A DNA stretch of 46,421 nucleotides from a virus. Lineage: Duplodnaviria > Heunggongvirae > Uroviricota > Caudoviricetes. Location: the IMG/VR virus record IMGVR_UViG_2541047773_000007. One strand, 5' to 3'. This document shows, one piece after another, positions 5,106 to 41,670 of the stretch (position 1 is its first letter; each line of letters begins with the position of its first letter). The notes under the pieces are model-generated. The model had not been told where the DNA came from. It worked only from the letters and a program-made list of their open reading frames with translations, and searched no databases. The translations under genes and the position numbers were made by a program.

Positions 5106-7483
5106 TAGATTGACTCCCCCACCTGAGCATCAGTCAATGCCTTGTGCCATATTCTGAAATTCCTGACATGACCAAATAAATGACGTAACCCGGCTGTAGT
5201 CTGGCCTCCAATACGGATAATTGCGGTGTTCTGAATACAGGACCATGTGGTTTTTGTTTCGCTGGATATATGCCCGTTACTTACTGAGCACGTAGACTGC
5301 TCTGACTTTACACGCATCCCCATAACCATTTTTTCAAGCGATGCGTTTTCGTTTACCCGTCTGTTAGCTCCTCCAATATCGCAATAAGGAAATCCGTCGT
5401 AATCTGTTGAACGACCGAAGCCAAGAATAATAGCCGCTCCGGTTTGATGACCGCCGGTATCAAAAACACGTGGCGCTGCATTTGGCGTTTTATACCAGTT
5501 CTTATGTACCTCACAAAGAACCGTAAAAGGAAGATTATAAAGATTATTCTTAATTGGAACTGTAACTATATCGCTTGCGCGGGTCGCCGCCGTCGCTCCT
5601 GATATAATAAAAGATGATACACAAGGCCCATCTTCTACTTGTGGGGTGGCCAGATAAATATAGTCACCAGATACGGTTGCCCCGCTCTGCTTAGGAGAAT
5701 ACTGTATCTGAGAGCCTATTTTTAACTCCCCATCAATTGCCTGAATTGTTGCCTCTGCAAAAATCCATCCGGTAGCTTCGTCCTTTCTGACTCTCGCTGT
5801 AATCCTTGAGGCAGCACCGCCTGTCATATTAATTTCAAGCGTTTGTGTATCAATATACGCATCACCAAGAAAAGTTGTTGCGCTACCGTCATATTTATCA
5901 AACCGGATACGCAACCTTACCTGCAGTTCTGTTTTAAAACGACATGAGGTTGTCACGTGTTTATTATCGCCTGAGACATCAACTGACTTTGTTGCAGCAA
6001 TTGATGCCATATTAATGGCTGAGGTTTGCCCAATCAGAGAATCGTTGCAGACAAACTTTCCATAGGTAAAACCAAAATTATCCGTCCCTGTTTCGGGCAC
6101 ATCCATATTTGACGATCGCCCCCAACTGGCAGGGCTTTCCGAATTGAGCATGTAGTTTGTTCTTTGCCCCTCAATAAGCAGGCCATCACGTTCAAATCGT
6201 GGCTCGTCAATGGCAGCCTCTGTCAGCACACCAGATTTGTTAATATAGGTTGCTTTCGATGCACGTTTAAACTTAACAATCTTGTCGCCAGGCATCGTTA
6301 TTTCATCGTCACCAATAACAATTTTTTTATATGACGGCGAAAAGCCCGTAATCATATCCAGCGAATCGTTAAATGGTATCCACACATCAGGCAGCGGCTG
6401 TAAGACATATTTATACGGCTCCGCAGCCTGGCTTGCGTACTCTCTGGCTGCATCTTCGCTTGCTTTAGCTGCCGTCTGGCTTGCTGCCGATGCTTTCGCT
6501 GAGTTCGCAGCCGCTGTTTCGCTCACCTTTGCGTTGGTTTCACTGGTTTTTGCTGCTTTTTGACTGTTAGCTGATGCAGTGGCAGAAGCAGCCGCCGCGC
6601 TTGCAGAACTGGCTGCGGCACTCTCGCTTTGAGCCGCTGCATCCTGACTGCTTTTCGCCGCAGTTTCACTGGCTTTGGCATTCGTTTCGCTGGTCTTCGC
6701 TGCCGTCTGGCTGGACTTTGCGTTAGTTTCACTCGTCTTCGCAGCTTTCTGGCTGTTAGCCGTAGCAGTTGCTGATCCAGCTGCTGAAGTCGCAGAACCG
6801 GCTGCCGCGCTCTCGCTTTGGGCTGCTGCAACCTGGCTGTTTTTTGCCGCAGTTTCACTGGCTTTAGCATTCGTTTCGCTGGTCTTCGCTGCCGTCTGGC
6901 TGGACTTTGCGTTGGTTTCGCTCGTCTTTGCGGCTGTCTCGCTATTTTTCGCGTTGGTTTCTGATTTTTTAGCTGCTGTTGCGGAGTTTGCCGATGCAGT
7001 CTGCGAGGCCGCTGCCGCCTGTGCGCTGTTAGCTGCATTCGTTTCTGAGGTTTTCGCCGCGTTCTTCGATGATGCCGCTGCAGTTTCGGATTTCTTTGCC
7101 GCCGCTGCGCTCTGAGAGGCGGCTTCAGCGTTGCGTGCCGCTTCTTCCACCATTTCCTCAAAACGACGCAATGCCTCCGGCATGACATCATCTTCCGTCA
7201 TGGCACCGAGAAAATCATTCAGCGTACCTGGTCTGGAACCTTCATAGACGGTAATGGTTCCGGCATGTGAAGGCGGAAAACCTTCAACAAGCAGGATAAC
7301 GCTGTACTGGCCATACTCAACATCCATGCTGTAACGCCCGGCTTCATCCGGATTTTCAGAGGCCACCGTGTTCACCAGTACCGTGGTGCTGTTACGCTTT
7401 GCCTTCAGTTGAATAGTGCAGTTCTGTATTGGTTTTCCCGCACCATCTTTCAGCACACCTGAAATCTGTACTGCCATACTCAC
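5105..7483 (-). CDS. stf: Side tail fibre protein (Stf) with distinct C-terminal receptor-binding region
   Basis: 792 aa; N-terminus MSMAVQISGVLKDGAGKPIQNCTIQLKAKRNSTTV... is lambda Stf-like; long SETNAK/AAKTSETNAK repeat tract; C-terminal roughly 430 aa unrelated to lambda Stf. Confidence 0.85.
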   Translation of the reverse strand: MSMAVQISGVLKDGAGKPIQNCTIQLKAKRNSTTVLVNTVASENPDEAGRYSMDVEYGQYSVILLVEGFPPSHAGTITVYEGSRPGTLNDFLGAMTEDDVMPEALRRFEEMVEEAARNAEAASQSAAAAKKSETAAASSKNAAKTSETNAANSAQAAAASQTASANSATAAKKSETNAKNSETAAKTSETNAKSSQTAAKTSETNAKASETAAKNSQVAAAQSESAAAGSATSAAGSATATANSQKAAKTSETNAKSSQTAAKTSETNAKASETAAKSSQDAAAQSESAAASSASAAAASATASANSQKAAKTSETNAKVSETAAANSAKASAASQTAAKASEDAAREYASQAAEPYKYVLQPLPDVWIPFNDSLDMITGFSPSYKKIVIGDDEITMPGDKIVKFKRASKATYINKSGVLTEAAIDEPRFERDGLLIEGQRTNYMLNSESPASWGRSSNMDVPETGTDNFGFTYGKFVCNDSLIGQTSAINMASIAATKSVDVSGDNKHVTTSCRFKTELQVRLRIRFDKYDGSATTFLGDAYIDTQTLEINMTGGAASRITARVRKDEATGWIFAEATIQAIDGELKIGSQIQYSPKQSGATVSGDYIYLATPQVEDGPCVSSFIISGATAATRASDIVTVPIKNNLYNLPFTVLCEVHKNWYKTPNAAPRVFDTGGHQTGAAIILGFGRSTDYDGFPYCDIGGANRRVNENASLEKMVMGMRVKSEQSTCSVSNGHISSETKTTWSCIQNTAIIRIGGQTTAGLRHLFGHVRNFRIWHKALTDAQVGESI

Positions 7484-7537
7484 TCCACAAATAAAAAAGG
7501 CGCCATTTCTGGCGCCCGTATTGGGGTTATAAATATT

Positions 7538-10500
7538 TCAACGGATACTGATACCGGAAGCAGCTTTTTTGGTCACAATCACCGTACAGTCTGTGATGTT
7601 ACCTGCGCCCTGATTGCCTTTCTGGAAAATCTTAAACTCCAGAGTGACGTTACCACCACCACTCGGCATATCAATAACCGCACTGTAACTACCGGGAATG
7701 GCTCCTTTAGTTTCTCTGGATGCGATTAATACGCCATTTTTGCGAACTTCAAAACCATAACCCGTGTATCGCGTACCTCCCGGGTTATTACCGCTCCCCG
7801 GATCGTCATACGCCACACCGTTAAAAATAATGGGCGGAATAATGATTTGGCGGTCAAAGTTATGATCATCGTAAATGGTGACTGTAACCGTCCCGTTTGG
7901 TGTTTCCGTGTTACCCCACGTACCAGCCTTTTTCGGGAATGATTTGGATACAGTTTTAACGAAGTCACCTCTGACCTGGTTCGCCTCCAGCATGCCCTTA
8001 ATCGTACAGTTTTCATTTACCGTGACATTATTGAGCGTCCCGGAGTTCGCATTCACGTTACCGCTGATATCGGCATTTTTCGCCGTCAGCCGCCCGTCCG
8101 GTGTCAGGGAAAATACCGGAGGATTGCCGCCACTGGTAATGGTGGGAGCCGTCAGATACTTCAGGAACACTTCGTTCATGAATATCTGGTTGCCCTGCGC
8201 CACAAACATCGGCGTTTCATTCCCGTTTGCCGGGTCAATAAACGCGATACGGTTAGCGGCAACCAGGAACTGGCTCAGTTTGCCTTCCTCCGTATCCTCC
8301 ATGCTGAGGCCAAGCCCCGCGACATAATGTTTGCCGTCTTTGGTCTGCTCAATTTTGACGCCCCACATGGCATTCCATTTATCGTTGGCGTCCTTCCACT
8401 CTTTCGAAAACTCCTCCAGTCTGCTGGCGTTATCCTCCGTCAGCTCGACTTTTTCCAGCAGCTCCTTGCCGAGATGGGATTCGGTTATCTTGCCTTTGAA
8501 AAAATCCAGGTAACCTTCCGCATCATCGCTCGCCCGACCGACGGCCTCCACGAATGCCGATTTGCCAACGGTGTTCACACTGCGGATGTAAAAATAATAA
8601 TCATGGCCCGGTTTGATATTGATACTGGCGGCTATCCAGTACAGCGCCGTACCAAGATAGCGGGCTGTGGTTTCAACCTGCCTGATATCGGTAATCCGCT
8701 TTTCCGAGAACCAGAACTCAAACTGTACCGTCGGATCATAAACCGCAAGATGCGGCGTGGCGGTTATCTGAAAATAGCCCGGCGTCAGCTCAATCCGCGA
8801 TGGTGCTGCCGGTGCGGCAATCCGGAACGATACCGACGCCGGATCGCCCTGCTGCCCCCACGCATTTACCGCCCGGACTGTCAGACTGTAATTTCCCAGA
8901 GCCAGCTGCCTGAAGCGGTATGTGGTTTCCGTCGTCCGGGCCGTGCTGACCAGCCGCTCACTGCCGTCATCCGCTGCCACGGTCAGGCGAAGCATAAAGC
9001 TCACGCCCTTCACCACCTTCGGCGTATCCCAGCGCGCCAGCACCTGGTATTCCCCGCTGTCTGCGGTGACTTCGGCGGTCAGGTGCTGCACCGCTGGCGG
9101 CGTGACACCATTCACCGTGCCGCTCTGGTCGCCGTCAAAGTGCGCCCCGTTATCCACGATGGCTTCTTTTTCCGGTACATGCTGCACGGCAGTGATGGCA
9201 TACGTGCCGTCATCGTTCTCACGGATACTCACACAGCGGAACAGGCGCTGACGCAACGTCGGCAACTTCAGCCCCCACACACTGTATTCTGCAACGCCGT
9301 CAGGAACCCGATTCACTTTCACCTTAAGTCCGTCGGTGACGGACTGAACCTCCACGCTGACCGGATTACCACTTCCGTCAACCAGGCTTATCAGCGTGGT
9401 ACCGGAGGATGGCAGCGTGATTTCACGGTCGAGCGTCAGCGTCCGGGTCTGGCTGTTCACCGCCAGCACGCGACCACCGGTGCTGATACCGGCATAGTCA
9501 TCATCGCAGATTTCAATGACATCGCCCGGTACATGGCGAAGCCCTTCAGCACCCACGCTGAAATCCACGGTCTGCGTCTCCAGCAGTTCCGTTTTAATCA
9601 GCCACAGCCCGGCGCGGTGTGCCTGCCCCCGGCTGGTACAGCCAAAGGCATCCATCTTCGTGACATTACGACCGTAACGGGCAATGGCCTGCGTATCTTC
9701 AACAAGCTCTGTCGCCGTCTCCCAGCCGTTGTTCGGGTCAATCCAGTTCACCTCAACGGCATTATGGCGGTCCTTCAGGGCGCTGAAGCTGTAGCGGAAC
9801 GGCGCGCCATCATCCGGCATCACCACATTACTGCGGTTATAGGTCCACACCTTATCTGATGGTCGGTCCTGCACGAACGTCAGCGTCTGCCCGTTCCATA
9901 CCGGCATACAGCGCATCGCCGAGCAGAAATCACTGAGCACATCCCACGCCTTACGCTGCGTGGTCAGCCAGGCATTACAGGTGATGCGCGGCTCCGTGCC
10001 GCCAAAGCCGTCCGGCACCGACTGGTCGCAGTACTGGCCGATGACATACAGCGCCCATTTATCCACATCCGACGCACCAAGACGTTTTCCCATGCCGTAG
10101 CGCGGATGGGTCAGCATATCCCACAGACACCAGGCCATGTTGTTGCTGTATGCTGGCTTAAACGTTCCGTCCCAGATACCGCTGTATTGTCGCGTCTGCG
10201 GGTTATAGTTCGACGGCACCTGCAGAATGCGCCCGCGAAGATGATAATTACGACTCACCTGCTGGCTGCCGAACTGTTCCGAGTCCACCTGCACGCCAAC
10301 CAGTGCCGTGTTCGGGTAGCACTGTTTCACATCGATGATTTCGGTGTATGACGACCAGAGCGTTTTGTTCTGCAGCTGGTCTGTGGTGCTGTCCGGTGTC
10401 ATCCTGCGCATCCGGATATTAAACGGGCGCGGCGGCAGGTTACCCACCACCACCGATGCCAGATACTGTGAGGTGGTTTTGCCTTTAATGGTGATGTCTT

Positions 10501-28122: not shown

Positions 28123-28393
28123 GATGTTACCGTAGTATGTGAGTATCCATCGAATAGACACCAAGCAAAAAAGCTCCCGAAGGAGCCTTCATTTTCACTT
28201 TTTTAAATCCAACGACAGACGGCTGGCATTTAAGTATTGTGAAATATTATCAAATGTAATCATCATTGATTTACAAAAGATACATTTTGCCCCGAAAGGA
28301 TTCATGTCAGAAACATCAAAAGATGATGTTCTATACTGGGAACCATGACAACACGGGCATCTAAAGTGAATATGGTTTGTAATATTGTCTACC

Positions 28394-28606
28394 TCAAAGC
28401 GCCACTACATGAACAGCGGCAGGACCTTTAGGTCCGTTCTCAATACCAAATTCAACTTCCTGATTCTCAGTTAATGTTTTGAAATCGTTGCTCTGAATTG
28501 CTGAGAAATGGACAAACACATCTTTGCTGCCATCTTTCGGCGTGATGAAACCAAAACCTTTTTCAGGGTTAAACCATTTCACTAAACCAGTCATTTTGTT
28601 AGACAT
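28394..28606 (-). CDS. cspI: Cold shock protein, CspA family
   Basis: 70 aa [38 protein letters not shown]...; RNP1/RNP2 motifs; Qin position equals cspI. Confidence 0.85.
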
Positions 28607-28974
28607 AATTATTACCTTTTGAAGAAATTAGCCCTTGGGCAGAATGGTCCGAAAAAAAATATCAGAGAGAAAAACCAACAAGGAAATCTCAAGAGGTACA
28701 AATAATAAAATTATAACAATGACTGCTTCAGATAAATTTGTAACAAACCAGAACACCATTAACGCATGATTAACCACCCATAGCAAGGATTACTTTTGTA
28801 AAGAAAAACACAGCAATGAAAGAATAGCTTTATTTATTAATAAAACGTGTCATTCTGATTAAGACCTTTTATCTTACCCTTAAGATTTCAGGAATTTTGA
28901 CTGATGGAAGAGTCCTTTTTATTTAAATTTTACATTCAGCGATGTAAATGTTCCGATTTAATATTACCCTACAT

Positions 28975-30996: not shown

Positions 30997-31277
30997 GAGA
31001 TTGTGGTGCTTTTTGTGGGAGTCATCCACTTACGCACTTTGTTTTGCCATGCCAGCAGTTAGCTTCTGCTGTAAAACTATTCATGCAGCAAACCTGCACT
31101 TCACCACAATGGTTAGCATACTTTTCCTGATTAAGATTTTGCCAAATATGCTGGCCATTGTTTCATGTATTGGACCTCCTTAAATTTTATTAAAGAAATC
31201 CAATATTCACTACTCTGTCCGTATCTCTACTCAGGCATCAGCCTTCTTCGTTATCGTATACAGACGAGCGATGAATT

Positions 31278-31493
31278 TTAATCAGTAATGATGACATTTG
31301 CTGCTGCAGGACCTTTAGCACCACTCTCTATAGAGAAGGTAACCTTTTGACCTTCAAATAAGGTTCGATAATTATCATTCTGAATCGCAGAAAAATGCAC
31401 AAACACATCTTTACTACCATCAACAGGAGAAATAAAGCCGAAACCTTTATCAGCGTTAAACCATTTTACTAAACCAGTCATTTTATTTGACAT
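31278..31493 (-). CDS. cspB: Cold shock protein, CspA family
   Basis: 71 aa [43 protein letters not shown]...; Qin position equals cspB. Confidence 0.8.
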
Positions 31494-31793
31494 TCTACAT
31501 TCCTTAACTTGAGCCTTTCGGCATAAATGGTTTGCATAACAGAAACGACTTCGTACTTAATTGGAGAGACTCAAAGAAGGAATAAGTGAATAACACCTGA
31601 AATGAGAACTGCTTTAGTAAACTACTTCGTATATCGTCTGTTCTTCAAACCGACGCAATCATTAACGCATAGTTGAACATATGAAGCAATGTTTATTTTA
31701 GACATCCAGCCATCTTCAACCCCATCAAAAAACTATAGCTTTCTTCAGGAACGTGTGTATAGTGCGCCAAGTTATCAGTATTAAGGAATTTTT

Positions 31794-33193: not shown

Positions 33194-34243
33194 TTACGCC
33201 AGTACGCCTATTGCCAGCGCACGATCGATAAAACGAAATATCAGCTCCAGCTGGGAGCCATACTTCTCTTCAAATGCCACGGTATTCGCATGCAGCTCGT
33301 CGTGATGCTTTCTGCACAAAGGCAACACAAAGAGATCATGTGCTTTGGTTCCCATTCCACCCTGCCCGTGACCAATCAGATGATGCGGATCGTCGGCTGG
33401 CATACCGCAGCAAGCACACGGCTGTGTCTTAACCCAGCGTGTGTATTTCTCCTTAACCCAACGGTGACGTTTAGGCAGCTTCATGAAAGATTCCGGAGAC
33501 TCTGGATCAACGGTGATGCTTACCACCGTCTTTTCCTGTGATGGGTTTTGTTGCTGGTGGGCGTGAGGCAACGGTGCAAGATTTTTTGTGCGCTGTTTCA
33601 ATATGCTGGTGGCGGTCTGCTCTCCCGGTACGATGTCGCTTTCGCGGTACACCGAGCAGTTTTTTTCCGCTGGTAATCCCAGCGAGCGACGTAATACCGC
33701 TTCCGGTAGCGCGTCCGCCACCTGATTGCGGACCGCCCACCAGGATAATTCAGCCAGAGATAATTCACGCTCCTGCGTACCGCTTATTGCGTGACCGATG
33801 ACGTCAATCATCCATGCTGACAGGTTTTGATGAGCAAGTTGCTCGAGTGATTCGGATGTCTGGTCACGCAGCTGGTTGTCGCAGTGCCAGCACAACACCA
33901 TTGCGCCGGTACCATAACGGTGAATAACGGTTTCGCTGTGATGATAATCGCCGTGTGGCCACTGGCAGGATTTAATATTGCGCAACAGCCAGTCAGACAA
34001 TGCACCAGCACCACCAGCAGCACGAATTACCCGTGCGTTACTGAAAAACGGCAGCAATGTTTTGTCTTCCACCAGCGGCTGGCGAACGGTAGGAACGACC
34101 CCGGACGGCAGATTACGCATGCTTTTCGGTTCCGGCTCCACTAGTACCCGGGTATTGTGGAATACCGGCATGGATTCACGGCCCGGCTTAACGACCACCA
34201 GCCCGAGTTCCGGTACCAGAACAGGTCGAAGTAATACCCGCAC
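33194..34243 (-). CDS. ydfU: DUF968/HNH-like prophage protein (YdfU-like)
   Basis: 349 aa; C-terminal CACCGMPADDPHHLIGHGQGGMGTKAHDLFVLPLCRKHH resembles an HNH-like zinc motif; Qin position. Confidence 0.6.
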   Translation of the reverse strand: MRVLLRPVLVPELGLVVVKPGRESMPVFHNTRVLVEPEPKSMRNLPSGVVPTVRQPLVEDKTLLPFFSNARVIRAAGGAGALSDWLLRNIKSCQWPHGDYHHSETVIHRYGTGAMVLCWHCDNQLRDQTSESLEQLAHQNLSAWMIDVIGHAISGTQERELSLAELSWWAVRNQVADALPEAVLRRSLGLPAEKNCSVYRESDIVPGEQTATSILKQRTKNLAPLPHAHQQQNPSQEKTVVSITVDPESPESFMKLPKRHRWVKEKYTRWVKTQPCACCGMPADDPHHLIGHGQGGMGTKAHDLFVLPLCRKHHDELHANTVAFEEKYGSQLELIFRFIDRALAIGVLA

Positions 34244-34244
34244 G

Positions 34245-34523
34245 TTACCTCCAGATGCGTTGCTGGAATGTACGGGACGGACGCGGTGGGCGTTCGGAGT
34301 AAGGCAATCTGACTGAGATTATCCAGTGACGGTAGTCGAGACTAAGGGCTTTCTTAACCTCGTATCCGCGCCTGCGGTAACACTGAATTATCCATTCAGC
34401 CTGCTCTTCAGTGCATGGAGGGTGTTGGAACCATTCAGACTTGAATGCGTAAGAATACCGCTCGTGCGTGCAGACAAGAACGGGCGAATTATCAGAATTG
34501 TAATATTTTACGTTGCGTGCCAT
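34245..34523 (-). CDS. rem: Small prophage protein (Rem-like position)
   Basis: 92-aa ORF coupled downstream of ydfU; identity as Rem is positional only. Confidence 0.4.
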   Translation of the reverse strand: MARNVKYYNSDNSPVLVCTHERYSYAFKSEWFQHPPCTEEQAEWIIQCYRRRGYEVKKALSLDYRHWIISVRLPYSERPPRPSRTFQQRIWR

Positions 34524-34589
34524 CGGTTTTCTCCGGTGGCACGGTGTTACTCAGCGGGAGTTCAGCCCCGCGCAAGATTGTAGATGAGT

Positions 34590-34841
34590 TTATTCTTCTG
34601 CAAAAGCTGAAAAGCCTGCTTTTATTCCGATCTCTTTCAGTGCCTGTAATGAAGTGACAAACTCACCTTCGCGCAAGATAAATCCGTCTGTCACTCGACC
34701 ATCCACAAAATTAATTAACGCAGCCCCATTCTTTCGCAAACACATAATGCGGTAATGACTAACAAGATTTCCATTTTCAACGCACACAGCATAGAGGCCA
34801 TCTTCACAAAAAATTTTACGCAGTTCTTCGATGTTCATCAT
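34590..34841 (-). CDS. Hypothetical protein
   Basis: 83-aa ORF between rem-like gene and hokD; no recognised motif. Confidence 0.4.
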   Translation of the reverse strand: MMNIEELRKIFCEDGLYAVCVENGNLVSHYRIMCLRKNGAALINFVDGRVTDGFILREGEFVTSLQALKEIGIKAGFSAFAEE

Positions 34842-34957
34842 CAGAATCCTTCCGGATAATTAGCTCTCCCCTTTAAGGGACCATCCCTCTTATCCCTGCG
34901 CGCTACTTAAGTATTTTTGATTCTATTCCGGCACCGTCCAGAACTTCAAACGCGTTG

Positions 34958-34990
34958 AAAATAAAAACAAAAACCCGCCGAAGCGGGTTA
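34958..34990 (-). terminator. Rho-independent terminator downstream of hokD
   Basis: Hairpin AACCCGC-CGAA-GCGGGTT followed on the minus strand by TTTTTGTTTTTATTTT. Confidence 0.5.
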
Positions 34991-35057
34991 AGTGCGGGTG
35001 CGTTGAGGATGCCTGCCACATCAGAGGTGGCGAGGGATTTCTCCCTCGCCGGGTCTC

Positions 35058-35213
35058 TTACTCCTCAGGTTCGTAAGCTGTGAAGACAGCGACCTCCGTC
35101 TGGCCGGTTCGGATTCGTACCTCGCAGAGGTCTTTCCTCGTTACCAGTGCCGTCACTATGACGGTTAAACAGATGACGATCAGGGCGATTAACATCGCCT
35201 TTTGCTGCTTCAT
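35058..35213 (-). CDS. hokD: Hok-family membrane toxin (HokD/RelF)
   Basis: 51 aa MKQQKAMLIALIVICLTVIVTALVTRKDLCEVRIRTGQTEVAVFTAYEPEE; the track ORF is this plus an in-frame upstream extension. Confidence 0.9.
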   Translation of the reverse strand: MKQQKAMLIALIVICLTVIVTALVTRKDLCEVRIRTGQTEVAVFTAYEPEE

Positions 35214-35716
35214 AGCCTGCTTCTCCTTGCCTTCCGGCACGTAAGAGGCTAACCTACATGTGTCTAGCATGAAATTGGCCTCAGATTAATGTTAAGCGTC
35301 TTGCAGGACGCGTAATGTTAACTGGGGCTTTTCTCTATCTGCCTTTGGTGTTCATGCCCGAGGCAGATAGCCTCAAGCACCCGCAGCCATTCTACTTAAC
35401 TACCTTTACCTCGCCAATATGAAATCAGTCAGAAAGGCGATCCATAAGAACAATAGCAAGACAATAAATTGCCATTACAGCCGCAATAGCCAGCGCACAC
35501 TTGAGAACCAGCACGACAACCTCCTGTATTGGACGTACACCAGTCCTGATAAATATGAGGCGGCCTCTTAAGTGATTCAATACAACTATTAGGTATAATT
35601 AGTCAGATTTTTTCTGTGGAAATGGGACATTACAACCTATCGCCACCAACAATTGAGACGCTAATCGCCCCATCTCGTAACCTTATCCAAAACGAGGCCT
35701 AAATCATGGCAATTGA

Positions 35717-35938
35717 CTAACGTTTCTGAGTAGATAATGCCCTGAAGTAAGCGTTGCTAATCGATTGATAAATCTCAATATCTTCAGAACCTGCAAGTTC
35801 GACATACTCACTCTCACATGTAGACGGTTGAGCAGTGTGTTGGACACTTCTCGTGTTCGAGTGGATTGTTCCTATACTAACTTCTGTTAATATAGGTAGT
35901 TCCAACTGGTTTCTGTCGTTTTTTTTCATATAAATCAC
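35717..35938 (-). CDS. Small hypothetical protein translationally coupled to deaminase gene
   Basis: 73-aa ORF (GTG start, or ATG three codons in) overlapping the deaminase stop; no recognised motif. Confidence 0.4.
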   Translation of the reverse strand: MIYMKKNDRNQLELPILTEVSIGTIHSNTRSVQHTAQPSTCESEYVELAGSEDIEIYQSISNAYFRALSTQKR

Positions 35939-37035
35939 TCAAGCCTCAACAAGTTAAGTTTATTACTATCAACTTCAGCAATAACTACCTGTTCTAATTT
36001 AGGAATCGCTTTGAGACTAACGCTATCCACAGGCATAGCCGCACCCTCTGTCGCTAACTCTAGCACCCCAGCTTTAGATTTTCGAGATCCAGATTCAAAA
36101 AGCTCAAGAAACCTAGTTGGAGCTACTCCATCAAATTGTATCAATTTCACTTTTTCATCAGTCTCGATTACTGATTCGGTCATCGCATCCGAATGAAGTT
36201 TAAGAGCTAAGCTTTTTCTATACGGCTCAATAAAATATACTTCAGAGATACCAGAAGCGATAATATGCCTTGCGCAGGAATGACATGGATAGGTTGTTAC
36301 AAATATTTTTCCGCCTAAAATTCTTTCTCCTGCCACACGAGATGCGCCAAGAATCGCGTGCATTTCTGCATGAACCGCTCTTGAAAACTCTATTAAATCT
36401 TTTAATCGTGAGTTTTTTATAATAGTTTGAATCGCCGCTTCTCTTTTTTTTACAGGGATTATTTTTTCCTGTACAAGGCTATCAATGACAACTTCAGCCA
36501 ATATTCTCTTTTCCGCATCATTCGAGCAATTTCTATTTTGTAATGTATAACAACGATGATCAGGATCAATAACTTTTAAGCGGATAGATTGTTTACCATA
36601 GAGACCACCACCATTACGAGGCACATCATTCCAACCGGTAGAAAGAAGTTCTCCAGATGAAGATGTTACTGCAGCACCAACTTGTCTTGATAGACATGCA
36701 GAATTACGAGCCGCTGAGGTGGCTGCATACATTGCATTTTCCTCTTCAGTCGGTGATATAACTGAACTCCTAAAAATTAGCTTAAAGAAACGTTCCAGTT
36801 TAGATAGAATTTGGCCTTTAGCATCGGCATTTCCTGGCTCTGCCAACCCACTGTCAACCCGCAAAAAGTAATCACACTTCGGGAAAGTGTCTCTAACTGA
36901 TTGCCCATGATCGAACTCTTCACCAGAATCAGTATTGATTAGTTCAGCAATATCTTCAACGCTTAGTCTATTAATTTTTGAAAGATTTTCACGCCTTGCC
37001 TCTAAAGGGGAAAATACACCTATAGAGAAAATCAT
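35935..37035 (-). CDS. Cytidine/dCMP-deaminase-family protein (CDA-fold zinc deaminase); candidate nucleotide-depleting defence/toxin effector
   Basis: HAEMHAI then 25 aa then PCHSCARHI is the canonical H-A-E / P-C-x-x-C zinc-binding signature; first ATG at 37035; track ORF (TTG start at 37206) has a low-complexity N-terminal extension overlapping the upstream ORF. Confidence 0.8.
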   Translation of the reverse strand: MIFSIGVFSPLEARRENLSKINRLSVEDIAELINTDSGEEFDHGQSVRDTFPKCDYFLRVDSGLAEPGNADAKGQILSKLERFFKLIFRSSVISPTEEENAMYAATSAARNSACLSRQVGAAVTSSSGELLSTGWNDVPRNGGGLYGKQSIRLKVIDPDHRCYTLQNRNCSNDAEKRILAEVVIDSLVQEKIIPVKKREAAIQTIIKNSRLKDLIEFSRAVHAEMHAILGASRVAGERILGGKIFVTTYPCHSCARHIIASGISEVYFIEPYRKSLALKLHSDAMTESVIETDEKVKLIQFDGVAPTRFLELFESGSRKSKAGVLELATEGAAMPVDSVSLKAIPKLEQVVIAEVDSNKLNLLRLE

Positions 37036-37573
37036 TTTTCCATAGATTGATTTCAACAATCTCAAGCTCAGAAGAGTTTTTAACTGAGTCAATAATATGA
37101 CAAATTTTTTGATTTTTAATCTTACTCGCTTCCCCTTTGCTGGATTCATTAACAATATCATCAAATTCACCAAAGTTTTTTTTACGCTCGGCGCTAATTT
37201 TAGCAATAGCTAATTTTGCAAGAATATCACTACCATAAATTTCACGAAGTTTATCACCCACAGTTATAAGTGACTTGAATTTCTTTAGATTAGTGCTTTC
37301 ATCAATATTAATTGATGTATATTTTGAATTAATCCGGATTAGATCACTCAAGCGTATGTCGTATGTTTTATAGCCATATTTTTTAAGCGAGAATGATATC
37401 TGCTCAGCAGTCTCATGTAGCGGTGAACCAATTGGCCCACAAAGTGCGATTATAATCTCTGGAGTAACACTGTCTTTTATTTCTTGAGTTGCATTAATTG
37501 TTGACAGCTCGGCAACATCATCATTCCCAACAAGTTGAAACTCTTGACTTTTATCTAAGGCTGTGCCTTGCAT
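36989..37573 (-). CDS. N-terminal NTPase/kinase-like ORF overlapping the deaminase ORF (separate protein or frameshifted N-terminal domain)
   Basis: 194-aa ORF with degenerate P-loop-like IIIALCGPIGSPLHE; 3' end overlaps the deaminase frame. Confidence 0.55.
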   Translation of the reverse strand: MQGTALDKSQEFQLVGNDDVAELSTINATQEIKDSVTPEIIIALCGPIGSPLHETAEQISFSLKKYGYKTYDIRLSDLIRINSKYTSINIDESTNLKKFKSLITVGDKLREIYGSDILAKLAIAKISAERKKNFGEFDDIVNESSKGEASKIKNQKICHIIDSVKNSSELEIVEINLWKNDFLYRCIFPFRGKA

Positions 37574-37864
37574 GCCCTTATCCTAATTAATAGTATTTTT
37601 CCCTCTTTATAGCTAATTAAGATAAATGTTGCAAAGTAATATTGCACATGAAACTTGAGTTAGTAATCCTTTTGACTAGATGGTTTGACCTGCGCCCTAT
37701 AGATAAACACACTACGCTGTTAGCAACGTTCGCTTCTGGCACAAAGCAGGCACCACACTAGTTCTTCCCTGTACCATAAAAATGTCAATTCACATATGAA
37801 CAAATGCTATTTAATCTAAAAATGTCTATAAATACCGTGTAATTCACTGATAAAATGCCAATAT

Positions 37865-38242
37865 TCACTGAATAACTTCACTCCTCCGGTACTCGCGACA
37901 GATTATGTTTAGGTGACTGTCGTAGCGACGTATTTCTCCGTCAGGTAATGACCAGATAAGGTCCGGATCAACCACAGCGGGTTTCTTCACCTTCGCCCTA
38001 GAGAGTTTTTTGCGGGCATTTTGCCAGTCCTTTCGTGCCTGTTGAGACGGGAATAACGCGTAGCCGGAGTTGTATACATAACAACTGGCAACCAGCTCTC
38101 TGGCAAGAATGCTCATCAGATATCTTGTCGCACCTGTCTTGGCTTCCAGTTGCCGTAACGTCTCACGACCGCTCTGGCGCACGAGTTCCACCACCTGCCC
38201 TTTAATTTTTTCCCGCTCTTCTTGTGTAAAAACTTTTGCCAC
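37865..38242 (-). CDS. Hypothetical protein downstream of replication gene
   Basis: 125-aa basic ORF; function unknown. Confidence 0.4.
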   Translation of the reverse strand: MAKVFTQEEREKIKGQVVELVRQSGRETLRQLEAKTGATRYLMSILARELVASCYVYNSGYALFPSQQARKDWQNARKKLSRAKVKKPAVVDPDLIWSLPDGEIRRYDSHLNIICREYRRSEVIQ

Positions 38243-38282
38243 AAGTCCCCCTTAAAATTACCTCATGACCTGAAATCAACAC

Positions 38283-39248
38283 TTATCCCCTGAAACCAGG
38301 CGGAATTTCGGTATCCGGTTCAGAAATATGATTCACACAACGCTTTATTGGCGAACGCCCCAGGCGAATAACCAGCTCATCCCATTTTTCGCGAAGCTTT
38401 GACGGACTCATGATGTTTTTGACCCAGAATGGATCTCGCTGTACCCGACCAAACATTTCGCAAATTTGTCTGTGGCTTCTGCCATCCAGCATCCGCATTG
38501 TGCGCACGTCATTGGCCCAGGCAGTCCAGTTAGGCTCTTTTGGTCGCATGATCTCGCCATCATCACTGGCGGCCTGTTCGTAGAGACCCACGATCCGCCC
38601 CCAGATCCACTGCGCACACGCCAAATCCTCCTGGCTACCCCACTGCCGTTTTTTCGCACTAAACACAACTGCGTCAGGGTGCCGGATTAAAAAATCCTGT
38701 TCAGCCGTCTGCTGGTCCGGTTGCAAAGCTTCCGGACGAAAAGTGTTTTTATTCTCTGTAGTAATCTCTGTTGTATTCTCTGTAGGATCATCGGGCCATT
38801 TTGACCCGATGACATTGGGTCGTTTTGAACCAATGGAGCGTTTCATTTTGACCTCTTCCATCATGTCATTTTGACCTGATGGAGCGACGCATTTTGAACT
38901 GATGGATTCGCTCAATTTGCCACCATCTAAAAGATCGCTCCCGTAGTTGATCGTGTAGAAATTGGTCATGTCGCGCTTTGATTTATTGAGCTTTTCGCAA
39001 CGCAAAAGCCCCAGCGTTTTCAGACTTGCAAACGCGCGCTTTAACGTTGACTCTGACCAGAATGGGAACTGCGCCAGCCATTGTTCCGTTGTGTTGTAAA
39101 TCCAGCGAACACCATCGCATTCCATGCCGGAATTGGTATCTCTCAACCAGTAATGCAGTTGCTGCAACACAATGGCTTCGTTTAAGCCAATCTTCATCGC
39201 AAGCTGTGTGTTTATAACCAGTGGGCGTTCAGCAAAAAGAAGGCTCAT
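38283..39248 (-). CDS. Phage replication initiation / replisome-organiser protein (O-like)
   Basis: N-terminal winged-helix-like LNEAIVLQQLHYWL...GVRWIYNTTEQWLAQFPFWSESTLKRAFASLKTLGLLR; position downstream of the cro-like gene; start ambiguous. Confidence 0.6.
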   Translation of the reverse strand: MSLLFAERPLVINTQLAMKIGLNEAIVLQQLHYWLRDTNSGMECDGVRWIYNTTEQWLAQFPFWSESTLKRAFASLKTLGLLRCEKLNKSKRDMTNFYTINYGSDLLDGGKLSESISSKCVAPSGQNDMMEEVKMKRSIGSKRPNVIGSKWPDDPTENTTEITTENKNTFRPEALQPDQQTAEQDFLIRHPDAVVFSAKKRQWGSQEDLACAQWIWGRIVGLYEQAASDDGEIMRPKEPNWTAWANDVRTMRMLDGRSHRQICEMFGRVQRDPFWVKNIMSPSKLREKWDELVIRLGRSPIKRCVNHISEPDTEIPPGFRG

Positions 39249-39750
39249 AATTCCATCCAGCTTTTTGTTGGTATTGCTGTCGATACGCAAGCTTGAAAGC
39301 AATTGCTTTTTCTATAAGTTCGTCAGTTTCACGATCTACAACGGCAGGATCTGCAAAAAGCAGTCCGGACTCCACCACATCGCCATATTCTTTATTTAAC
39401 CCAGCGATCATGTACGTAATACTCTTTCCGTCACTAATTTCACGATACAACCTGAAATCACTAATCCGGATAGCCTCCATAATTGCAGGCACTAGCGCTG
39501 TGAACTTTTCACGCTTATCCCTGGTGTCGATAGCCTTCCAGCGTTCGAATATCTTCACTCGATTAACGCTAAGCGCTCGCTGATCAACCGCGCCACCTTC
39601 ATATGTGACACGCTGAACATCGATGTTCGGGCGCTCTTTCAAAGCCCAGAATGCTTCAGTGATTAATATCGTCGCCTGCTCCTGTGTCATTCCTGGTCGA
39701 CATATCCAGGCATCCAGAGCCTCACGAGCCTGTTCAGGAGTGATTTTCAT
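39229..39750 (-). CDS. Hypothetical protein in cII/YdaT-like position
   Basis: 173-aa ORF directly downstream of dicC, overlapping the replication gene start. Confidence 0.4.
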   Translation of the reverse strand: MKITPEQAREALDAWICRPGMTQEQATILITEAFWALKERPNIDVQRVTYEGGAVDQRALSVNRVKIFERWKAIDTRDKREKFTALVPAIMEAIRISDFRLYREISDGKSITYMIAGLNKEYGDVVESGLLFADPAVVDRETDELIEKAIAFKLAYRQQYQQKAGWNYEPSFC

Positions 39751-41613: not shown

Positions 41614-41670
41614 TTTCTGGTGACGTTTGGCGGTATCAGTTTTACTCCGTGACTGCTCTGCCGCCGTTTT
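41614..41670 (+). ncRNA. dicF: DicF small RNA
   Basis: TTTCTGGTGACGTTTGGCGGTATCAGTTTTACTCCGTGACTGCTCTGCCGCC followed by T-run matches the DicF sequence as I recall it; lies between ydfB/C and dicB. Confidence 0.8.

Follow-up and report, generated by a model that had tools for sequence, protein, structure and literature searches.

A frameshifted dCTP deaminase cassette in an accessory hotspot of a Qin-like prophage probably belongs to a class of palindrome-delimited cassettes shared by unrelated backbones

The window analyzed here is the complete 46,421-nucleotide (nt) stretch of IMG/VR record IMGVR_UViG_2541047773_000007, to which all positions refer. It is a Qin-like lambdoid prophage of Escherichia coli with cspB/cspF, the Q-type antiterminator gene ydfT, ydfU, rem and hokD, and further Qin-like markers are a ydaT-like gene, dicC, dicA, DicF and dicB. 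The interval between its replication module (dicC, ydaT-like gene, O-like gene and a DUF977 gene) and hok/sok-rem, in the following called the slot, is an accessory and defence hotspot, and its map position is that of the nin region of phage lambda. We consider it probable that positions 35646-37742 form one cassette in this hotspot, that this cassette carries a frameshifted anti-phage dCTP deaminase gene, and that cassettes of this kind are delimited by two short palindromes, site A on the DUF977 side and site B on the hok side, and are shared across different backbones.

The content of the slot was tabulated using Rem as bait. From exact-protein contexts and IMG/VR we kept the 71 loci that have both the hok/sok and the DUF977 anchor, a sampling that is biased toward loci with Rem or a perfect site B pattern. 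The DNA between the anchors clusters into 30 unrelated types with a size of 0.9-6.2 kb, and on either side more than 2 kb of flank is conserved with 93-98% identity across cargo types. In comparison with loci of other cargo the junctions cluster at 35625-35648 and 37720-37737, leaving a variable part of about 35649-37719, and in comparison with the same cassette in another backbone (locus L353, see below) the variable part comprises 35646-37742. The deaminase cargo is present in the window and in one other locus among the 71, which excludes the deaminase as a conserved core. Of 5426 complete E. coli genomes 7 carry it, each time in the slot, and an empty slot was detected in none of the 5426. 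Other anti-phage dCTP deaminase genes of E. coli lie elsewhere in the chromosome and are distant alleles, matching at about 71% identity over no more than 130 nt.

Strong PADLOC matches to known or candidate defence systems were obtained for 16 of the 30 types, corresponding to 41 of the 71 loci. PD-T7-1 (three types), PDC-S39/DUF4209 (two) and PDC-S06 (two) are found in several types each, and further types contain PDC-S15, PDC-S33, an AbiU-like AIPR protein, NsnA/PD-T4-2-like, PD-T7-3-like or PDC-M68B-like genes, Kiwa KwaB, a type I-C retron (RT-Toprim) or the dCTPase. K-12-like loci have relBE in the slot, about 14 cargo types are without a strong defence match, and non-defence cargo (flxA, QueH-like genes) is also present. 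Judged by these profile matches the cargo is predicted to be largely defence. The combination of conserved flanks with a variable, defence-rich content supports the assignment to the prophage defence hotspots, and the slot is a newly recognised member of this known class. It has already been stated in the literature that accessory genes follow the replication genes of lambdoid prophages, and a recent survey reported that hok overall is not enriched near defence systems; a paper naming this particular slot was not found in our literature search.

Several of these points had been raised in a first-pass annotation of the same DNA. The gene order it gave for K-12 agrees with the K-12 annotation (rem-hokD-relE-relB-ydfV-flxA-ydfW-ydfX-dicC), hokD is indeed kept in the window, and an AT-rich deaminase block (GC content 0.30-0.42 versus 0.46-0.55 in the flanks) stands where K-12 has relBE. 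The variability that it assigned to the whole interval 34958-38242 holds for 35646-37742, and the remainder is conserved backbone. The two open reading frames (ORFs) of 83 and 125 amino acids (aa) that it had counted as unannotated cargo are Rem and a member of the DUF977 family, both of them RefSeq-annotated backbone genes; a protein identical to Rem is present in loci with at least 10 other cargos. Its suggestion that toxin and defence cargo is exchanged between related prophages is borne out by the 30 unrelated types but was too narrow, as the same cassettes also move to unrelated backbones. The frameshift in the deaminase gene had not been noticed.

Most cargo types start just past one palindrome and stop just before another one. 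Site A on the DUF977 side has the pattern TCCGCT-TT-GTGCCA-NN-AGCGGA (read GTCCGCTTTGTGCCAAAAGCGGAC), and site B on the hok side has the pattern TCCGCT-NN-TCGCTC-AA-AGCGGA (read TCCGCTCCTCGCTCAAAGCGGAC). Both are 22-nt palindromes of 6+2+6+2+6 nt with identical arms (TCCGCT and AGCGGA, 6-7 nt) and different cores. In the Qin backbone, site A has TT as its left dinucleotide in 24 of 24 types, and its right dinucleotide and 3' arm show 7 and 10 variants, respectively. Site B is the mirror image of this: the right dinucleotide is AA in 17 of 17 types and the 3' arm AGCGGA in 16 of 17, with 5 variants of the left dinucleotide and 6 of the 5' arm. Because the variation is one-sided in both sites, the outer half-site travels with the backbone and the inner half with the cassette, and the cassette-linked half-sites are conserved although the 10 nt beside them are unrelated. 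Within the Qin-like loci of 16-18 kb, 58 A and 40 B sites have the usual orientation and none lies outside the slot; a few inverted copies of A and B are present in K-12-like cargo. Since multi-gene cargos hold internal B-linker-A junctions, the slot is an array of cassettes.

The sites lack the U-tract of intrinsic terminators (A is followed by GTTGC..., B by TAGAAGG... or CTTCAG...), and the terminator scan of the window passed over the degenerate site A and picked out two structures only, the 3' hairpin of the cassette and a short stem located directly downstream of A. A promoter function of the TTGACA-containing block beside A is doubtful and was not adopted, as the variants have a -10-like hexamer at distances between 15 and 23 nt from it and a consensus scan remained silent. 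The sequence CACAGRGTARAG was considered as a general motif upstream of A, was found in Qin and P2 contexts only (12 of 220) and was not used further. No Rfam family covers the A and B sites in the array-bearing loci.

Several cassettes recur in unrelated backbones. The PD-T7-1 cassette was located in at least four backbones, its junctions falling on identical bases. With a protein identity of 99-100% it occupies the first position of the Qin slot, follows an internal A in this slot, and lies between genes G and FI in a P2-like prophage as well as in other backbones. Its start is each time GCGGAC/GTTGGTATGC and its end AGCATAACAAGG/TCCGCT, and the outer half-sites match the host backbone. The flxA cassette of K-12 (1018 bp, NC_000913.3 about 1,645,978-1,646,995; L003 5979-6996) is likewise bounded by A and B, is inverted relative to hokD and was identified at 99% identity in two non-Qin contigs, in which the homology begins in A and stops at the end of B. 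In the K-12 region examined the site matches only at this cassette. The ydfV ORF of K-12 MG1655 is annotated across site A and may be a chimeric or spurious ORF.

The deaminase cassette itself is shared with L353, a lambdoid backbone that is unrelated to the Qin-like one and has no hok, rem or DUF977. The DNA identity is 96.7% and the homology is confined to exactly 35646-37742, beginning in the core of an intact site A in L353 (TCCGCT GA GTGCCA GA AGCGGA). The cassette of the window is atypical: its site A is decayed, and it ends without site B in a terminator-like hairpin at a Chi-like octamer. In most relatives the flank on the hok side is about 60 nt longer and starts with site B followed by a perfect Chi (GCTGGTGG), which is located about 55 nt beyond site B in most Qin-like backbones at the position of the Chi-like octamer of the window. 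In L353 about 730 nt are inserted just before the terminator-like end (6893-7619), which, from inspection by eye, may be the remnant of an insertion sequence or transposase.

In phage P2 the Z/fun region has site A after gene G, and GTTAGCAATG followed by site B before gene FI; a P2-like prophage contains an A..B-A..B array between G and FI. The region of P2 from 19 to 32.5 kb, including int and the early genes, is free of A and B. On the A side the flanks of Qin and P2 have a further block of about 45 nt in common. The sequences outside A and B in P2-like backbones are 16-nt inverted repeats, AATCTGACAGTCCGCT and AGCAGACTGTCAGAATT (phage P2, L351: 900-935 and 2500-2545; L336: 5285-5320 and 8479-8515), and the ends on the cassette side are inverted repeats as well (AGCGGACGTTGCTAAC and GTTAGCAATGTCCGCT). 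This gives the impression of one long ancestral hairpin behind gene G with the P2-like cassettes in its loop.

The B pattern is present in at least 120 IMG/VR contigs and in at least 120 species genomes of Enterobacterales including plasmids, and A..B-A..B arrays also occur in the species genomes. Sorted by protein anchors, the examined loci (IMG/VR contigs with the B pattern together with the PD-T7-1 and deaminase loci) comprise 65 Qin-like, 7 P2-like and 63 other backbones. An 85-nt B-linker-A composite was detected in 2316 of the 5426 E. coli genomes with 1-5 copies each, all of them intergenic among the matches listed. Cassette genes in the species genomes belong to the GNAT, ASCH, HNH, Abi_2, SDR and TetR families and include one autotransporter; loci of Rahnella and Ewingella contain GNAT acetyltransferases, toxin-antitoxin pairs and small ORFs without known function. 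Some arrays are located at prophage ends, one of them (L196 5812-6175) adjoining ssrA (tmRNA). Another array lies beside the tail-fibre/attP 'b region' (L152, L214 = phage HK446), and 76 nt next to B are common to HK446, mEp234 and phi80. Taken together, these data show discrete cassettes with ends at A and B in several unrelated backbones, and the linkage between backbone and cassette switches at the core.

The arrangement of the sites suggests that a crossover in A together with a second one in B would replace a cassette. As A and B share their arms and differ in their cores, the geometry resembles engineered recombinase-mediated cassette exchange (RMCE) with two heterospecific sites, and such an arrangement of A and B would explain the absence of an empty slot. 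It is possible, though less likely than not, that a recombinase, either a dedicated one or one of the host, binds to the arms that both sites share and exchanges the strands in the 6-nt core, allowing A x A and B x B crossovers only. This is in line with the inverted arms of 6-8 nt around a 6-nt core, which is the architecture of tyrosine-recombinase core sites, with the switch of linkage at the core in every multi-backbone case, with arms that are conserved in sequence without covariation, with a slot that is swapped and never deleted in 5426 genomes, and with the conservation of the sites across Enterobacterales and unrelated phage families. On the other hand, no recombinase gene co-occurs with the arrays in the chromosomal loci examined, many cassettes are without one of the two sites, and the origin of the tandem arrays and of the first insertions would be left unexplained. 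To our knowledge A and B also have no likeness to dif, attC or phage att cores, which counts against a site-specific reaction too. That a natural cassette exchange operates in Enterobacterales, in which a site-specific recombinase swaps A/B-flanked cassettes among lambdoid prophages, P2-like Z/fun regions and chromosomal or plasmid arrays through coupled crossovers of A with A and of B with B, seems rather doubtful to us.

Hairpin-guided recombination at short homologies is a serious rival, even if we hold it for somewhat unlikely as well. Here A and B would be regulatory or structural stem-loops present in every such moron, and the cassettes would be exchanged by RecA, Red or RecET-type recombination at homology patches of 22-70 nt or by template switch in the hairpin loop. 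Such a process would resemble the PeSL motifs of T4-type phages and the linker sequences of lambdoid phages, and several features fit: Qin-like prophages encode a YdfE-type exonuclease, a perfect Chi is located near B in most backbones and the junction of the window is at the Chi position, the 45-nt block common to the Qin and P2 flanks provides additional homology on the A side, and no recombinase was found beside the arrays in the chromosomal loci examined. However, a length of 22 nt, four positions of which vary, does not exceed the minimum that efficient homologous recombination usually requires, the crossovers seem to lie in the core only and to leave out the arms, and the covariation expected for a structure is weak in sites that also have no terminator U-tract.

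Homologous recombination in the long rem/hok and DUF977/O flanks alone, with the palindromes as incidental flank ends, is very improbable as a complete account: it is the classical explanation of lambdoid mosaicism, has highly identical flanks on both sides at its disposal and would fit the cargo types without A or B, but it is contradicted by cassettes that are shared with P2-like and other backbones without flank homology and with junctions at the sites, by the half-sites kept next to unrelated DNA and by the internal B-linker-A junctions of multi-cassette cargo. Recombination in the flanks certainly contributes to the exchange among related prophages and offers no explanation for the transfer between P2-like and lambdoid backbones.

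Several observations weigh against our reading of cassettes delimited by A and B. Flanks of this length and identity suffice alone for cargo swaps by homologous recombination among relatives. Six of the 30 cargo types have no A-like site and 13 have no B, and the cassette of the window has no B either. As the 6-nt cores are nearly invariant, a crossover inside the core or at either of its edges is indistinguishable. No conserved recombinase is present beside the arrays in 120 chromosomal loci of species genomes, where the commonest neighbours are LysR, SDR, ADH, AraC and MFS genes, and the only exception in the Qin-like slot is a 200-aa integrase fragment within one cargo type. An excised circle, an empty site, a hybrid site or an unsplit target hairpin was found neither in the 5426 E. 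coli genomes nor in 3.66 Mb of loci and IMG/VR. Covariation between the arms is weak and double changes occur at about chance frequency, so folded RNA or single-stranded DNA is not specifically supported; this points to sequence conservation and not to a purely structural constraint, and an explanation of the arms by RNA structure alone is unsupported for the same reason. Finally, the paired-site architecture, which the slot has in common with P2 and with chromosomal arrays, appears to be new, and no mention of the exact site sequence was found in the searchable literature, but a 2004 paper on P2-like phages by Nilsson et al. (Mol Biol Evol 21:1), the title of which reportedly proposes site-specific recombination in these phages, may pre-empt part of it. 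In spite of these points we still regard cassettes delimited by A and B and shared across backbones as the probable explanation of the data.

Within the cassette of the window, the deaminase gene is split by the insertion of one base (Table 1) into an N-terminal fragment of 194 aa (36989-37573) and a C-terminal fragment of 366 aa (35935-37035). The strains KK19-02 and SJC33 contain the same DNA with an identity of 99.8-99.9% and encode a single 545-aa 'anti-phage dCTP deaminase'; besides the insertion, the window differs from the intact KK19-02 allele by 2 substitutions in 1.6 kb. The intact allele reaches 463 bits with NCBIfam NF041025 (equivalog cut-off 400), and the two fragments stay below this cut-off with 80 and 354 bits because of the +1 insertion. 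The exact fragments were found on 283 and 293 contigs and the intact allele on 720, and as these contigs come from several sources the frameshift is real. The motifs GPIGS (37421-37438), HAE/HAEMH (36358-36372) and PCxxC/PCHSC (36271-36288) are preserved. The C-terminal part shows the zinc-dependent deaminase motifs (Pfam dCMP_cyt_deam_1, 1e-15). The N-terminal fragment is P-loop kinase-like, covers positions 137-255 of the PADLOC dCTPase profile and has the serine of GPIGS at residue 50, which, from its position, would be equivalent to S49 of the Vibrio parahaemolyticus protein.

Proteins of this family are reported to deplete dCTP and dCMP when phage infection stops host transcription. The break is located at positions 122-132 of the NF041025 profile, with the P-loop region on one side of it and the remaining protein on the other. 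The activity of AvcD (DcdV) has been reported to depend on features in both of its domains, the kinase-like and the deaminase one (10.1101/2021.03.31.437871). Because of the frameshift and this requirement for both domains, the allele of the window is most likely inactive and a non-functional remnant. It seems highly unlikely that the split deaminase still works as two interacting polypeptides or by translational frameshifting, which would turn the stretch into an active defence: the frameshifted allele is common, otherwise almost unmutated and still has the P-loop-like serine as well as HAE and PCxxC as catalytic motifs, but the insertion lies outside any slippery or homopolymeric sequence, the break separates the P-loop region from the remainder of a protein that needs both, and near-identity to the intact allele is equally expected from a recent clonal mutation.

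The AvcI RNA is expected directly 5' of the deaminase gene in the same orientation, and the RNAs of the reported homologues are without sequence similarity (10.1101/2021.03.31.437871). No AvcI-like RNA was recognised in the leader at 37574-37728, the fold of which is ordinary (z = +0.76) and which has no Rfam match, bearing in mind that the known AvcI RNAs share no sequence. The 73-aa ORF on the 3' side of the deaminase differs from its L353 copy by four amino-acid substitutions (compared by eye) and is probably not a gene.

Table 1. Features of the slot and its flanks in the window; the gene strand of all listed features is (-).
Feature	Position	Strand	Evidence and remarks
rem, 83 aa	34590..34841	(-)	PGAP 'protein Rem' WP_000980999.1; Pfam PF27490; backbone on the late-gene side
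hokD, CDS 35058-35213, in 70-codon mok-like ORF	35058..35270	(-)	Pfam HOK_GEF 3e-23; PGAP hokD; backbone
sok antitoxin RNA, full length	35208..35382	(-)	Rfam RF01794, 117 bits versus gathering threshold 59, model 1-157/157
Conserved flank, hok side	35383..35645	(-)	93-98% identity to loci with other cargo; site B missing
Chi-like octamer GTTGGTGG	35643..35650	(-)	exactly at the hok-side cassette junction
Variable cargo, dCTP deaminase cassette (leader, gene, 3' region, terminator-like end)	35646..37742	(-)	match to L353; replaced in 29 other types
Terminator-like hairpin, 3' end of cassette	35654..35672	(-)	terminator scan; same end in L353; at the place of site B in other cassettes
73-aa ORF 3' of deaminase	35717..35938	(-)	no match in Pfam, PADLOC or NCBIfam
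dCTP deaminase gene (AvcD type), disrupted	35935..37573	(-)	PADLOC dCTPase 1e-30 and 1e-134
One-base insertion, +1 frameshift	37060	(-)	A on the coding strand, GAG-A-TTG, no homopolymer; alignment with KK19-02
Cassette leader, starts GTTGCTAAC	37574..37728	(-)	about 155 nt; conserved in L353
Degenerate site A, CCTGCT TT GTGCCA GA AGCGAA	37729..37750	(-)	homology with the L353 cassette starts in the core
Conserved flank, DUF977 side	37751..37864	(-)	common to loci with other cargo; TTGACA-containing block 37761-37788
DUF977 family gene, 125 aa	37865..38242	(-)	Pfam PF06163 6e-20; backbone on the replication side; found in 71 loci
O-like replication gene	38283..39248	(-)	93-95% identity across cargo types; backbone

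The backbone around the cassette is largely conserved, and the region 34200-39400 is identical at 100% in four RefSeq chromosomes. On the hok side the Hok peptide, the overlapping mok frame and the antisense sok RNA are all present. In K-12 Qin sok has been lost, the homology to K-12 stops at 35227 within the hok region, and relBE is joined there in K-12. Between sok and the cassette the flank contains a 29-codon hydrophobic ORF (35425-35514, minus strand, VLVLKCALAIAAVMAIYCLAIVLMDRLSD) with an AGGAGG ribosome-binding site, which is intact in 12 of 13 sequence variants (61 loci), unannotated by PGAP and without Pfam match. Its variable sites show no bias toward the third codon position, so the coding status is uncertain, and it may be a second small membrane toxin-like peptide next to hok. 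On the replication side the C-terminus of the DUF977 protein differs in length between loci (125, 133, 140, 143 and 151 aa), the 3' end of its gene enters the conserved block beside site A, and the gene is flagged as frameshifted in strain KK19-02. PGAP names the product of the O-like gene 'phage O protein family' or 'phage replication protein O' and elsewhere 'hypothetical protein'. The Rfam search of the window also identified DicF, a small RNA (41615-41666), and the cspA-type thermoregulator leaders of the prophage cold-shock genes, two in number (28367-28752 and 31262-31654); all of them are ordinary features of Qin-like prophages.

Prophage hotspots are a main reservoir of anti-phage systems. 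The slot adds a lambdoid hotspot with 30 cargo types to them, and the roughly 14 types without a strong match are candidates for new defence systems. The two sites offer a sequence handle for finding such cassettes in any genome or phage of Enterobacterales and a mutable target for studying the exchange between P2-like phages, lambdoid phages and chromosomal islands. In addition, flxA of K-12 and Z/fun of P2 can be reinterpreted as one cassette class.

A comparison with known systems shows likeness to several of them. An identity with repetitive extragenic palindromic (REP) elements and bacterial interspersed mosaic elements (BIME) was rejected, because the composite is restricted to 2316 of 5426 E. 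coli genomes and does not reach hundreds of copies. The deaminase resembles AvcID (Hsueh et al., 2022; 10.1101/2021.03.31.437871; PMC10511110) in its P-loop kinase-like N-terminus and dCMP-deaminase C-terminus, and differs by the frameshift and by a leader in which no AvcI-like RNA was recognised. The cassettes also recall integrons, as they form arrays of promoterless or single-gene cassettes between imperfect palindromes, each cassette with its own half of a site, and the cassette content in Rahnella and Ewingella is like that of chromosomal integrons. In contrast to integrons, however, no IntI-type integrase was found beside the arrays in 120 array-bearing loci, the RYYYAAC...GTTRRRY boxes of attC are replaced by the outer boxes GTTAGCAA...TTGCTAAC, and instead of one attC per cassette there are two alternating site types of 22 nt or a composite of about 64-85 nt. 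Engineered RMCE with heterospecific lox or FRT sites is similar with regard to identical arms, incompatible spacers and a cassette that would be exchangeable and not excisable, but RMCE is a man-made system with a known recombinase.

Morons are described as units of promoter, gene and terminator. The genes of the lambdoid moron and nin regions have the same map position as the slot between the replication and late-regulation genes, but the boundaries described here are two related palindromes without U-tracts that are common to non-lambdoid phages and chromosomal arrays. PeSL (promoter-early stem-loop) motifs are conserved short sequences, regulatory or forming stem-loops, that, reportedly according to Arbiol et al. 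in 2010, flank novel ORFs in the hyperplastic regions of T4-type phages and were proposed to promote modular shuffling; they belong to virulent phages of another group and have another motif, and a promoter role on the A side is doubtful in our case due to the variable spacing.

The prophage of the window has the same slot as K-12 Qin, for which the insertion of relBE beside hokD with truncation of mok/hok has already been reported (PMC6379469), but it keeps an intact hok/mok/sok and the replication genes lost from K-12. The closest counterparts are the hotspots of P2-like phages and P4-like satellites (Rousset et al., 2022, PMC9122126; Vassallo et al., 2022, 10.1101/2022.05.12.491691), in which conserved genes likewise flank a short, defence-rich variable interval. 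A term search of that study (PMC9122126) revealed that hairpins, palindromes, stem-loops and terminators are unmentioned, and how cassettes move between hotspots is explicitly left open there. The slot differs from these hotspots in being located in a lambdoid Qin-like prophage between DUF977 and hok/sok and in a cargo that is not solely defence, yet the P2 Z/fun hotspot between G and FI has the same A and B sites and the same PD-T7-1 cassette as the Qin slot.

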